Shown piece after piece: positions 31,492-36,683 of a DNA stretch of 64,000 nucleotides (within the stretch, counting starts at the first letter, position 1; each line of letters begins with the position of its first letter). The notes under the pieces were generated by a model that saw only the letters and a list, made by a program, of their open reading frames with translations, did no database searches and was not told the DNA's origin. The DNA is from Rhodothermales bacterium (GTDB taxonomy: Bacteria; Bacteroidota; Rhodothermia; Rhodothermales; VXPQ01), in assembly GCA_022821845.1 (NCBI GenBank), contig JAJECT010000018.1, positions 20,306 through 84,305 of the forward strand, read 5' to 3'. The translations under genes and the position numbers were made by a program.

Positions 31492-31580
31492 CCGGAAAAC
31501 GCCGCGGGTACGGCGGCAAGGGGAATATAGGGAAAAGCGGGGCGGGGCGGCCTCGTTTTATCGCGGGCTGTCGGGGAAAT
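31492..31580. repeat. Left copy of an 88/89-bp direct repeat (island boundary), in the moaC 5' leader
   Basis: Manual alignment with 36596-36683 gives 7 substitutions plus one 1-nt indel over 89 positions. Confidence 0.9.
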
Positions 31581-31660
31581 GTTGAAACTGTAGCAAAGTG
31601 AATCCTATTTATAATATACGAAATTATGGAACCAAAGTAAAACAATAAGCAAATTAAAAT

Positions 31661-31981
31661 CTACGTCTTTTTAGGCAAGTTTTCGAGGCGTTCCGGATAT
31701 TTTTTTCCCGTTAGTTTCTGCAATCGCTCCAGTTCTTGCCTATACATTTTAGCTTTTTGTCGTTCCACAATGTAACGAGTAGAAAAAAACCAAAGTATTA
31801 TACTAATAGAAGGTGTTAAAAACAAAATCAAATTTGGTGTTTCTCCTTGTACATTTAATATTTGAATTACATTATATAGGTTATATAAAATAAAAATTGT
31901 AGTGATCGCAAAGATAACCCATGCAATAATTTGGGCTTTAATGATTTTATCACTATTTTTATTCATTGCACTATCCTCCAT
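31661..31981 (-). CDS. Small two-TM membrane protein with a basic C-terminal tail (AT-rich gene)
   Basis: The sequence MEDSAMNKNSDKIIKAQIIAWVIFAITTIFILY...LILFLTPSISIILWFF... shows the two hydrophobic helices. Its codon usage is strongly A/T-biased, unlike the host genes. The start is uncertain (31981 or 31966). Confidence 0.5.
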   Translation of the reverse strand: MEDSAMNKNSDKIIKAQIIAWVIFAITTIFILYNLYNVIQILNVQGETPNLILFLTPSISIILWFFSTRYIVERQKAKMYRQELERLQKLTGKKYPERLENLPKKT

Positions 31982-32513
31982 GTGGGCTTCTTTTATTGCA
32001 ATGTGTCTTATAACATTCCCGGAGCCGGTGGATAGCATAAGTACTTCCAACCCCGCCTAACACGACCGAAGTCCAAGCCAACCACCCCGCGGGCCCCGAG
32101 GCAATAGCAGTCCCAACACTACCTATCCCCACACCAAGCATAAGCGCATCCATATCACATTGCCTAACCCCCATATCGCAACGGCCATTCCGGGTTACCA
32201 TCTGGATATTTTCGGCGCATCGCTCATAGGGAGTCTGTGTTTTATACTGCCCTGCCATATTTGAAGGCGCATATGGATTAATTTTCGGACGTGAAGCGGG
32301 TTGACCTATCAAATGCCCACAGTACCGTTGTAAATCCGATGTAGCATTTCCAGATAATTGTATCTTCATAATAGGTACGGCTGTATTATTATACGCCATA
32401 TCTCGTTTATGGCTTCGCCATATAACAAAGATTATCATAAACATTGATAATGATATACAAAACCAAAAAAATAATTTTTGATCCCGTTTACTTTTGAATT
32501 TAATTAAAGGCAT
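31971..32513 (-). CDS. Cys-rich membrane-anchored protein with a C-terminal glycine-zipper-like segment (AT-rich gene)
   Basis: The N-terminal TM is LFFWFCISLSMFMIIFVIW. Eight Cys lie in the soluble part. The C-terminal segment is GVGIGSVGTAIASGPAGWLAWTSVVLGGVGS. Confidence 0.5.
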   Translation of the reverse strand: MPLIKFKSKRDQKLFFWFCISLSMFMIIFVIWRSHKRDMAYNNTAVPIMKIQLSGNATSDLQRYCGHLIGQPASRPKINPYAPSNMAGQYKTQTPYERCAENIQMVTRNGRCDMGVRQCDMDALMLGVGIGSVGTAIASGPAGWLAWTSVVLGGVGSTYAIHRLRECYKTHCNKRSPHGG

Positions 32514-33120
32514 GATATTAACCTGTGTTAGTTACGATGTAGTACAGCAGAACCCGGCCAGAACCGAGCACCGATTCCCCGAAAGCGGGCGCGTATCCAT
32601 AGTCTAACGCCCCGCCTGGACAATGTCAAGCCCTTGTCTGAATTTTTTTTCGGGCCGCTTCCCTGTGGGGTTCGTGGATTCCTTCGTACTCTTCGACGAG
32701 GCGTTCCGTTCGGCAAAGGTAGCATATCCATTCCGCCCGCCATACGCCTTTCTTCGCCTTCGAGGCCCAAAGCATAACGCCGCCTTTCTCTTCGCGCACA
32801 GGGTACAGGGGAAAGGATTCGGGATTTTGACGCGGAACCCGCCTGCGGTTTCAATGCAGTTCGGTTCGGGATCGGTTCGTTTCATGGGTTCGGTACGTGT
32901 AAGGGGTTCGCAGGCGTTGGCCGCTTTCTTTGCGCAGGAAGGCGAAACCGTTTCGCGCCTTCGCAAGCGTTCCGCATCGCGCCGTAAACGCGCCCAGAAC
33001 GCCCGCAAGGCCGCGCATCGAGGCCGAAAGAACCCGTAACGCGGCGGAAACCGTGCGGAAACAGCGCGTAAACGCGGCGTATCTACCAGAGGCGCGGCAA
33101 AATCACCGTGTAACAACCCT

Positions 33121-33178
33121 AAATTAGCCGTAAAACCGCTAAAAACAGCTGAAAACAGTAGTAAAACGCAAAAACCCC
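33121..33178. repeat. Phased A-tract / iteron-like array
   Basis: The sequence is AAATTAGCCG TAAAACCGC TAAAAACAGC TGAAAACAGTAG TAAAACGC AAAAACCCC. Six A4-5 tracts recur at spacings of about 8-12 bp, just upstream of the wHTH ORF. Confidence 0.6.
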
Positions 33179-33197
33179 GAAGCATTAGGCGGCAAGC

Positions 33198-34411: not shown

Positions 34412-34456
34412 GAGGGACTTAAAGGATTCGGGTTAGAGGGATGGGAAGAAGCGATT

Positions 34457-35827
34457 TCAACCAAGTTGAAGATGCAAATGAGGATTATCGGGATAAGTCT
34501 CCCAGGATTCATGTCGAAGACGAGGGTAGATGCCGTTTTTAATTTCAACAAATCTATCCCAGAGAGTCTTATTATCGCCAGTACGAAAATCCACGGCCCT
34601 GCCGTACATGTGACGACTTGTAGTAGGGTATGCACTACCTACATTCGTATTTCCTTGAGGACAGCGATAACCGGAATCGAGAATTATTCCGGAGTTGTAT
34701 TTATGACGAATCTTATCTATCGTGTTTAGCAAGGTAGTATTAATAATGCCCCATTCTTTATGTTTTTGATATTCTACTCCATTTGAAAATCGTCCATTAA
34801 GTTCTCTCCAAGTAAAATAAGTACTATTTACGTTAGTCCTGATATCACTGCATGAAGGAGTCCATTTTACTCCTAAATCTTCATACTCGTCGATCAAATC
34901 ACATATGACCTGCTGTCCACATTCGCATTCTTCTTCCTCTTCTTCACCATCACCATCACTGCCGTCGCTGCCGCCGCCACCACCGCCACCACCGCCGCCG
35001 CCGCCACCACCGCTACCACCGCCACCTGTATTATAACAAACATCTACACACAAAAGTTCTAAACCATAAGGTCTGCAAAAAGGAGGTGAATCGCCCGAAT
35101 AAACACAAAGCATACCTTTTGCGAATTCACAACGTTGAAAACATATTGTGATAATATGTTTTATTGAATTTATAGAACCAATTTTAACAAATTGTCCAGT
35201 TTCTATTTGCCTTGTAACATGATCTAAAGAAAGTTCAACAGGAATTTGACCTGGACGATAAGCATATGAATCAACATCTTCGAATAAGATAGTATAGCGT
35301 GATACTGTTATTTCCATTTCACCGAAATCATTCGCTACGTATTGTTCTACATAATTAGCAAAATCATTTTTGGACAATTCTTCTTCACTGGAAAAAACAA
35401 TAAAATTACCCGAAATTATATCTCCCGAAGGTTCCATATTCATAATGAGCGTACGAACGTGATACGTAGTACTGTCATAACGTTCGTCTGTATACTCTCC
35501 AAGCGTCGTTGTCAGAACAAGCGTTTCTTCCGTTCCATCGATAGACAAAACAACCGATTTATCCCAATCCGGAGGAAATTTCTCTATGAAAGCAAGTAAC
35601 GCAAGCGAATCTTCGTCTCCTTCAACCTTCGACAAATGCTCTGAAACCTCGATCTCCACTTGTTCCACGTACCAGGCTCGGGCCTTGGCCGTCAGGCCAT
35701 CGCTCGGAACGATGTCGTCCAGAGAGGAGAAATCCGCACCAGAATCGCAGCTCGATAGAAAGAGCGCGGCGACGAACAGGCCGCAAAGGACAGGGAGAAC
35801 GCCGCAAAGGAAAGACCGAGTACGCAT
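34457..35827 (-). CDS. Lipoprotein with a poly-Gly/acidic linker and a C-terminal LAS-type (peptidase M15-like) zinc peptidase domain
   Basis: The lipobox is LFLSSC|DSG, with the start set at MRTRSFL (35827). The linker is TGGGGSGGGGGGGGGGGGGGSDGSDGDGEEEEEE. The C-terminal domain reads SGYRCPQGNTNVGSAYPTTSRHMYGRAVDF (H-x6-D) and ends NPHLHLQ (H-x-H). Confidence 0.8.
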   Translation of the reverse strand: MRTRSFLCGVLPVLCGLFVAALFLSSCDSGADFSSLDDIVPSDGLTAKARAWYVEQVEIEVSEHLSKVEGDEDSLALLAFIEKFPPDWDKSVVLSIDGTEETLVLTTTLGEYTDERYDSTTYHVRTLIMNMEPSGDIISGNFIVFSSEEELSKNDFANYVEQYVANDFGEMEITVSRYTILFEDVDSYAYRPGQIPVELSLDHVTRQIETGQFVKIGSINSIKHIITICFQRCEFAKGMLCVYSGDSPPFCRPYGLELLCVDVCYNTGGGGSGGGGGGGGGGGGGGSDGSDGDGEEEEEECECGQQVICDLIDEYEDLGVKWTPSCSDIRTNVNSTYFTWRELNGRFSNGVEYQKHKEWGIINTTLLNTIDKIRHKYNSGIILDSGYRCPQGNTNVGSAYPTTSRHMYGRAVDFRTGDNKTLWDRFVEIKNGIYPRLRHESWETYPDNPHLHLQLG

Positions 35828-35923
35828 GATCGAGGGAATACAGGAGTGGTCCGTAAAAACTGGACAGGTTTGCGGGATTCGTTTTAGGTGCAGCTTTGCG
35901 GTGGGTTCTGCCGCCTGCGCCAG

Positions 35924-36091
35924 CGGATCATACCTGTAGTATACGTCATCGAGCGTGAGGTTGTCAAGGCCCTGGTGCGGGCGTTCTTCGTTGAAGTAGC
36001 GGACGTAGGCGGCGTAAACCACAGCAATTTTATACCTAAACTCCTGTCCAGTTTTTACGAACCACTTCTCCCGGCGATCCCTAACCCCCAA
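35924..36091 (-). pseudogene. Remnant of a transposase (C-terminal end of an rve/DDE integrase-core domain)
   Basis: The translation KWFVKTGQEFRYKIAVVYAAYVRYFNEERPHQGLDNLTLDDVYYR resembles the conserved IS3/IS481-type C-terminus (Y.N..RPH..L...TP...Y). No catalytic core lies upstream. Confidence 0.6.
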
Positions 36092-36644
36092 CGTTTATCA
36101 GTGAGATGAGCAGAGCCTGCAAGAAAGCCGCCAGTGCTCCACCCTCCAGACCGCCCCTGAGCAATTCTGTGTTGAGCCCAGCTTCAATGGCGATAAACAC
36201 AGCACCAAGCGAGAGCATTAAGAGCCACTGTATCCAAGGAGCCGTCGCATCATTATCACCAGGCCGCGACACAGCCGATACAGCTTTGATTTCCGATTGC
36301 TGGACCTGCGTGGAAGCATCGTTCCCGTCGTTCCCGCCATTCCGCGACGCCAGCCCGTCCGGCGATTGGCCGAACTTCCGGCACAACGCCAACTGCTCCA
36401 GCTCCGCCTCGGTGCTACGAACCAATTCGTCGGGACCCTGGGACTGGCTGGAACCGCCCGGCCCGAGCGGATCGCTCAACTTGGCCCGGAGGTTGCTCAA
36501 ACTCAGGTTGACATAGTCCTGAAGATCAAGCCGCAAGCTGGCCAGGAGGCTTTGGTGGGCCGACTGCCACAATCCGCCCGGCTTGGACGCACAGTCCGGA
36601 AAACGCAGCGGGTACGGCGGCAAGGAGAATATAGGGAAAAGCAC
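36081..36644 (-). CDS. Hypothetical ORF, possibly a gene truncated by the adjacent IS remnant
   Basis: This 187-aa ORF has its N-terminus encoded by the right copy of the direct repeat. It ends in hydrophobic helices that abut the transposase fragment. Coding status is doubtful. Confidence 0.3.
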   Translation of the reverse strand: MLFPIFSLPPYPLRFPDCASKPGGLWQSAHQSLLASLRLDLQDYVNLSLSNLRAKLSDPLGPGGSSQSQGPDELVRSTEAELEQLALCRKFGQSPDGLASRNGGNDGNDASTQVQQSEIKAVSAVSRPGDNDATAPWIQWLLMLSLGAVFIAIEAGLNTELLRGGLEGGALAAFLQALLISLINVGG

Positions 36645-36683
36645 GGCGGGCGGCCTCTTTTTATCGCGGCCTGTCAGGGAAAT
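36596..36683. repeat. Right copy of the 88/89-bp direct repeat (island boundary)
   Basis: See 31492-31580. Both copies are in the same orientation. Confidence 0.9.

Follow-up and report, generated by a model that had tools for sequence, protein, structure and literature searches.

Between the core genes dtd, which encodes a D-Tyr-tRNA deacylase, and moaC, an uncultured Rhodothermales bacterium carries approximately 5.75 kb of extra DNA compared with the empty site of the closest genome, L003 (approximately 31441 to 37194, by alignment to L003). We analysed this locus within a 64-kb stretch of DNA, hereafter the window, to which all coordinates refer unless stated otherwise; the islet proper spans approximately 31599–37150. 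With moderate confidence, we read it as a strain-specific mosaic islet that was built by several events at a permissive hotspot, with a duplication of the dtd–moaC spacer marking one recombinational entry. The interior comprises at least five unrelated modules that differ in source and G+C content, plus a separate 467-bp insertion. In four of the open reading frames (ORFs) of the islet, the G+C content at third codon positions (GC3) is 0.27–0.49, against 0.74–0.79 in the flanking genes; the G+C content of the flanks is approximately 62%.

The original prediction for this DNA, made from the letters alone, had described an island of approximately 5 kb between two copies of an 88/89-bp direct repeat and had taken it for one decayed mobile element with that repeat as its attachment (att) site. 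The insert is foreign, but the extra DNA continues past the right-hand copy. Decay is also borne out, whereas the interior, with its several modules, is not one element, and the att role of the repeat is unproven.

The dtd–moaC spacer is present twice

The two core genes and the parts of the spacer between them are arranged as follows.

30927–31433, minus strand: moaC, 168 amino acids, the core gene on the left flank (Pfam MoaC, E = 2.3e-51), with its ATG at 31433
31434–31474, minus strand: moaC-proximal part of the spacer, unduplicated; repeat similarity stops at 31475
31475–31598, minus strand: moaC-proximal spacer copy, complete, with a TATATT box and two hairpin-plus-T-run motifs
36579–36683, minus strand: distal part of the dtd-side spacer copy (the right-hand copy of the original prediction), placed by the repeat alignment
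36684–37150, plus strand: separate 467-bp insertion that splits the dtd-side copy at ATTTCC and carries its own hairpin and T-run
37151–37183, minus strand: proximal part of the dtd-side spacer copy, directly after the dtd stop
37184–37633, minus strand: dtd, the core gene on the right flank (Pfam Tyr_Deacylase, E = 7.6e-60)

The repeat was described exactly: 31492–31580 and 36596–36683 differ by seven substitutions and one 1-nt indel over 89/88 nt. The leftward extension that had been suspected is real and reaches 31475 and 36579, which lengthens the repeat to 106 nt (11 mismatches, 1 indel). A 28-nt core of the repeat, searched with up to three mismatches, occurs at two sites only in the 64-kb window (0.00 expected by chance), and within that range the repeat is not a dispersed family. 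The left-hand copy, on the minus strand, is continuous with moaC, ends 41 nt ahead of the ATG and includes a terminator-like site at 31496–31478.

Next to dtd lies a third piece of spacer. Positions 37151–37168 match 31575–31592 at 15 of 18 bases (0.01 matches expected per window), and the final six bases of this piece, ATTTCC, are also the first six of the right-hand copy. When 36684–37150 is deleted in silico, the two dtd-side parts join into a 118-nt copy that aligns end to end with 31475–31592, with 102 identical positions. What is duplicated is the native dtd–moaC spacer, nearly in its entirety, and the 467-bp insertion is later than the spacer duplication.

The idea that the repeat is a leader element of moaC did not survive, as it covers nearly the whole spacer and shows neither an Rfam match nor a special fold. 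At gathering scores, a search of the whole window with Rfam gave no match to the spacer copies, and at E values of up to 10 both copies returned only noise; they fold no better than shuffled sequence (z = 0.12 for the left-hand copy and 0.39 for the other). These Rfam nulls and shuffle-level folding give no sign of a molybdenum cofactor (Moco) riboswitch or of any other structured RNA in the moaC leader.

Empty and occupied sites in related genomes

Our comparison covers three genomes of the clade: that of the window, L003 and L083. L003 (OZ252093.1) is the complete chromosome of a Rhodothermales metagenome-assembled genome (MAG) with approximately 81% DNA identity to the window and a MoaC protein that is 80% identical. 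Synteny pairs L003 3662–9892 with window 43398–37194, and L003 9993–15338 with window 31441–26167. An empty site, which the original prediction had proposed to look for in relatives, is present in L003, where dtd and moaC are 95 bp apart with a single short spacer between them.

L083 (LXNJ01000186.1) is 91% identical to L003 and has an unrelated 5.5-kb insert at the same locus (L083 2771–8283), which encodes a 342-amino-acid coiled-coil protein with a 51-nt tandem repeat, a TonB-dependent receptor and a DUF4249 protein; no mobility genes were found in this insert. It interrupts the final codons of dtd, with 19 nt of the dtd 3′ end repeated on either side of it, and the original end of dtd is displaced to the moaC side. 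Neither the junction nor the duplication overlaps those of the window, and the two inserts have no DNA similarity to each other. The gene order shared with L003 and L083 picks up again at 37194. Across these genomes, three only, the same two core genes thus flank non-homologous accessory DNA, as at a hotspot, and the other junction and other duplication length in L083 point to a permissive hotspot and away from a single, defined att site.

Cargo of the islet

The winged helix–turn–helix (wHTH) ORF, the peptidase and its partner, the C-terminal remnant of a transposase and the truncated ORF that had been picked out from the letters are all present, by Pfam matches and by sequence. From the moaC side to the dtd side, the cargo is as follows.

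31661–31966, minus strand: ORF101, small membrane protein; G+C 0.30, GC3 0.27; called as a gene on Logan contig L091
31971–32513, minus strand: ORF180, with predicted membrane segments; part of the AT-rich module, GC3 0.38
32586–32632, minus strand: promoter-like segment, TTGACA-17-TAGACT, 87% identical to contig L093 1991–2037 (E = 4e-10)
32942–33197, no strand assigned: origin-like non-coding replicon fragment with a phased A-tract array and two CGTAAACGCG motifs (32983 and 33067)
33198–33533, plus strand: wHTH gene, 5′ three-quarters only; the open frame continues to 33614 in unrelated DNA
33551–34411, minus strand: partner protein, 286 amino acids, with a signal peptide; always downstream of the peptidase
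34457–35827, minus strand: lipoprotein peptidase, 456 amino acids, with lipobox LFLSSC, an N-terminal domain, a Gly-rich linker and a C-terminal Peptidase_M15_3 domain
35842–36069, minus strand: internally deleted insertion sequence (IS), 228 bp, with 27-nt terminal inverted repeats (93% complementary) and approximately the last 45 codons of an rve-type transposase
36081–36578, minus strand: 5′-truncated ORF that aligns to residues 62–233 of its sole homologue, P0019 (246 amino acids)
36808–37098, plus strand: small membrane/coiled-coil gene, 96 amino acids, inside the 467-bp insertion; weak coiled-coil-type PHROG matches only

As judged from the reading frames, the clearly intact cargo is limited to the peptidase/partner pair, the two predicted AT-rich membrane proteins and the small plus-strand gene.

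The AT-rich block had been noted from one 60-nt line, at 31861, with 14 G/C bases; it extends over 31604–32585, with 38.5% G+C. ORF101 has no family match. Exact matches to ORF180 come from this sample only, and no viral relatives were found for ORF180 or for the 96-amino-acid gene. The promoter-like site, of a replicon type, lies at 32629–32601, ahead of the two AT-rich genes, and the counterpart of its segment in L093 is upstream of the cargo genes of that replicon.

Part of the islet has close relatives on small replicons. Positions 32942–33533 are 94% identical to contig L092 and 82% identical to L093 and L094. The original prediction had seen here a GC-rich stretch of approximately 1 kb with an A-tract array; the A-tracts stand, with a period of 10 at 33132–33158, and the stretch can now be identified as a piece of the origin-like region of a small replicon. 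The wHTH ORF has a weak MarR_2 match (E = 5.8e-4, under the Pfam cut-off), and its homologues P0020 (94%) and P0021 (80%) cover 75% of the query, with DNA homology ending at 33533. A gene call of 252 amino acids on the public scaffold (32604–33362, minus strand) overlaps the wHTH gene on the opposite strand and the origin-like region; it has no family match, lies in G+C-rich DNA and is probably spurious.

L093 (KELL22-1_SAMN22237328 scaffold_21537, 1–3491) is a 3.49-kb scaffold that the same study obtained from a different sample. A 55-nt overlap between its two ends falls inside an array of 32-bp iterons, so the replicon is probably circular. The array is followed by A-tracts laid out as in the islet, the wHTH gene and a gene for a 405-amino-acid HTH_36 protein. 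We found no relatives of this protein in the plasmid collection or among viral contigs, and its matches in phages are limited to the HTH motif. This putative initiator is absent from the window, in which the origin-like region and the truncated wHTH gene are present. It is solely from the circular assembly, the iterons and the A-tracts that L093 is taken to be a putative plasmid; together with L092 and L094, it may represent an undescribed plasmid-like family in this environment.

The peptidase and partner occupy 33551–35840. The peptidase matches Pfam Peptidase_M15_3 (E = 4.3e-11), the endolysin family phrog_894 (E = 3e-14) and the zinc D-Ala-D-Ala carboxypeptidase of PDB entry 1lbu, and belongs to a small family of full-length homologues, 13 of which cover at least 77% of the query at 41–59% identity. 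No PDB or Pfam match was found for the partner, which is 32% identical to that of L088 (E = 2e-34). The order of the two genes is the same in L086–L089, L114 and L115, and the pair is found in at least four unrelated chromosomal contexts, in some cases near RelB/BrnT genes and never next to an integrase. Judged by these contexts, the pair is a portable cassette. It is likely a secreted peptidoglycan hydrolase with its cognate partner, and the role of the partner is possibly that of an immunity protein or a regulator.

The first 600 nt of the peptidase gene (35229–35838) are 84% identical to L086, compared with 67% for the remaining cassette (33552–34819), so the peptidase gene is itself mosaic. 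This contrast suggests recombination within the gene, the N-terminal part being conserved and the C-terminal domain and the partner varying more. The resemblance to LAS-type M15 hydrolases, phage endolysins and MepK-like enzymes is confined to the C-terminal approximately 90 residues. Unlike those hydrolases, the cargo peptidase is a lipoprotein with a large N-terminal domain of no known family and a Gly-rich linker, it is always paired with a secreted partner of 270–325 amino acids, and its score is far below the MepK cut-off (17 versus 185 bits).

The internally deleted IS has an rve_3 match and terminal inverted repeats that are unique to it in the window; no full-length copy was found in the window or in the related loci that we fetched. 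It carries an outward-facing TTGACA-18-TATACT site and ends 15 nt ahead of the peptidase ATG. There is no target duplication at its ends and it lies between two unrelated segments, which fits an IS at a recombination joint. Beyond it, the tblastx homology of the truncated ORF begins at 36569–36579, exactly at the edge of the right-hand copy, and the frame is still open. Because a gene is cut exactly at this copy, the right end is not an intact element terminus. We considered whether the truncated ORF came from the small replicon, but its homologue contig, L113, has nothing in common with L092 or L093.

Origin of the islet

When two DNAs are joined by a single crossover, the incoming DNA ends up flanked by direct copies of one sequence. 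We propose that the founding event would have been a crossover between the chromosomal spacer and an incoming, probably circular DNA that carried a spacer-like stretch. The crossover may have been att-like, through a site-specific enzyme, or Campbell-type, through homologous recombination, and would have left one spacer copy on each side; IS activity, further insertions and deletions would afterwards have remodelled the interior. Campbell-type integration of a plasmid finds a likeness in the origin-like region and regulator gene, which are 94% identical to an apparently free small replicon; it differs in that the rep gene is absent from the window and that no spacer homologue was found in the free relatives. 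The insertion would have come at little cost to the flanking genes, with both core genes keeping their native signals. A complete spacer, with terminator-like hairpins and a possible promoter box, lies beside moaC and the end of dtd is intact, which would account for the tolerance of the site to repeated insertions. As the islet encodes no recombinase, it would now be immobile on its own.

The two spacer copies are 14% diverged, with evenly spread mismatches and a Jukes–Cantor distance of 0.15, a quarter of the distance of 0.58 between the window and L003 at four-fold sites. Yet only 6% separates the replicon fragment from a free relative, and the truncated ORF has kept its open frame. This mismatch is suggestive of copies that were already divergent when they were joined, and turnover of the content between old spacer copies would equally account for it.

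Several observations weigh against entry by recombination at the spacer followed by remodelling. No integrase or recombinase, intact or otherwise, is present in any ORF of at least 50 amino acids in scans with Pfam, NCBIfam and PHROGs, as the original prediction had anticipated for an intact integrase; the sole mobility-type match in these scans is the rve_3 transposase tail of approximately 45 amino acids. Searches of viral contigs, phages, plasmids and the related replicons returned no attP: in viral contigs, repeat cores of 16 and 18 nt gave chance-level seeds with no extension past 16–22 nt, and L092, L093 and L094 hold no spacer-like sequence (blastn-short with both copies returned 9–13-nt chance matches). 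The window has no tRNA or transfer-messenger RNA (tmRNA) gene. The longest perfect match between the copies is 18 nt, a poor substrate for homologous recombination today, and the right-hand copy adjoins a truncated gene, such that the original element end, if there was any, is lost. The L003 and L083 spacers are too diverged to serve as outgroups and the native copy is not distinguishable. Finally, the central 677 bp (35309–35984) are supported by one assembly only, and only three clade genomes were compared.

Other identities for the insert were tried and rejected. A tRNA-linked island is contradicted by the lack of a tRNA or tmRNA gene in the window. As a whole, the insert matches no prophage or plasmid in distant-mode blastn searches of phage and plasmid collections. 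No credible PADLOC match points to a defence island, either for the cargo of the window or for that of L083. Nor is it a composite transposon, as the only IS piece is the internal one (35842–36069), with no target duplication and no inverted repeats at the ends of the islet.

The strongest competitor, which we nonetheless think unlikely, is a single integrative element that entered site-specifically at an att site of approximately 88–118 bp and lost its integrase, leaving a relic with attL and attR like that of a cis-mobilizable element (CIME). CIMEs keep their att sites and have lost their integration genes; they and the tandem accretion of integrative elements are among the closest known systems (Pavlovic 2004, Bellanger 2011, reviewed in PMC5704250). 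A missing integrase is permitted for a CIME, although not for an intact island, and the islet resembles a CIME as defined in PMC5704250 in further respects: direct repeats of the target flank foreign DNA, the empty site of the relative has a single copy, and the dtd-side copy is interrupted by a further insertion, which looks like accretion at an att site. Unlike the CIMEs described there, however, the islet has no cognate integrative and conjugative element (ICE), integrative and mobilizable element (IME), attP or integrase that we could find, not even an integrase fragment in the ORFs scanned, and its target is neither a tRNA gene nor a gene 3′ end. The copies, at 14% divergence with even mismatches, share no identical core beyond 18 nt; the element end is truncated where a gene is cut exactly at the right-hand copy; and the interior, with at least five unrelated modules of differing source and G+C content, is not that of a single element. 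The non-overlapping junction and 19-nt duplication of L083 also speak against a single att site.

A second alternative dispenses with att function altogether and is, in our assessment, rather improbable. Here the spacer would have been duplicated locally, through slippage, unequal crossing-over or fill-in of a staggered break, and DNA would then have been captured piecemeal by illegitimate events; homologous recombination within the core genes on either side can carry such content from strain to strain. Duplication lengths (118 and 19 nt) and junctions that differ between two lineages agree with this, as do the content of many modules and ages and the IS without target duplication at an internal joint. 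So does the precedent of Escherichia coli, in which tRNA genes and integrases are both lacking at most integration hotspots (Touchon et al. 2009, PMC2617782). The islet resembles such core-gene hotspots (PMC2617782) in that dtd and moaC flank either no insert or non-homologous inserts, with no tRNA gene, no integrase and mosaic, partly decayed content; it differs in that a 118-nt duplication of the whole spacer brackets the insert, that a 19-nt duplication is found in a second lineage and that the comparison covers three genomes. Against local duplication, a tandem-duplicated spacer without an insert is seen in neither L003 nor L083, and the replicon fragment and open truncated ORF look younger than the Jukes–Cantor distance of the copies, although turnover could reconcile them.

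We regard it as very unlikely that an unrecognized insertion mechanism acting in trans targets the dtd end or spacer in this clade, or that the family of small iteron replicons ferries cargo there; the idea arises from two lineages with independent, recombinase-less inserts and duplications of 118 and 19 nt.

The assembly is well supported at the ends of the islet. The matching metagenome scaffold is KELL22-1, SAMN22237337, scaffold_75. In an independent assembly of SRR16351678, Logan contig L002 is 100% identical to window 43457–35985 (odhA, ham1, dtd, the small gene, the right-hand copy, the truncated ORF and part of the IS remnant) and L091 is 100% identical to window 35308–30455 (peptidase, partner, wHTH, the AT-rich genes, the left-hand copy, moaC and floA); the right and left outer junctions, respectively, are thus reproduced. 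The spacer copies are 14% different, so an assembler would not collapse them, and a chimeric assembly is unlikely. That the islet is an artefact, a scaffold joined through a shared repeat, is barely credible: although the source is a metagenome scaffold and both Logan contigs end inside the islet (at 35985 and 35308), not far from what remains of the IS and from the conserved 5′ portion of the peptidase gene, the window has no Ns, both outer junctions recur at full identity, the copies would not collapse in an assembly graph, and the peptidase ORF is continuous and colinear with its homologues across 35308.

Other features of the window

Two MITE-like copies (miniature inverted-repeat transposable elements) of approximately 260 nt lie at 43427–43688 and 45196–45456. 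They are 87–95% identical, have inverted ends of approximately 31 nt (AGGATACTCTGATCAAA...CTCAG) and flank a gene; they are missing at the matching positions of L003, and similar copies are present in L086 (844–1100, 76%) and partly in L087. Judging by the relation between the coordinates of L001 and the window, ENA scaffold_75 appears to begin near window 45368, within one of these copies, and the window may therefore stem from another, longer assembly of that population.

On the dtd side of the islet, a 1,246-amino-acid 2-oxoglutarate dehydrogenase (38575–42315, minus strand) has an E2-like acyltransferase domain fused to its E1 domains and is conserved in L003. The E2–E1 fusion of OdhA/Kgd type is best known from Actinobacteria.

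Implications

The islet between dtd and moaC reveals no new kind of mobile element or mechanism; it is an ordinary mosaic genomic islet at a core-gene hotspot. It is a dissected case of how accessory DNA builds up in an uncultured Rhodothermales lineage. One core-gene spacer takes different cargo in different genomes, and a full copy of the spacer stays beside the downstream gene; the unusual length of this whole-spacer duplication is among its points of note. For the annotation of these MAGs, the 252-amino-acid call is probably spurious, the wHTH gene is truncated and the peptidase and partner are portable. Part of the cargo can be traced to a small, probably circular replicon that is free in samples of the same study, and thereby gives a lead to a plasmid-like replicon family without relatives in current plasmid collections.

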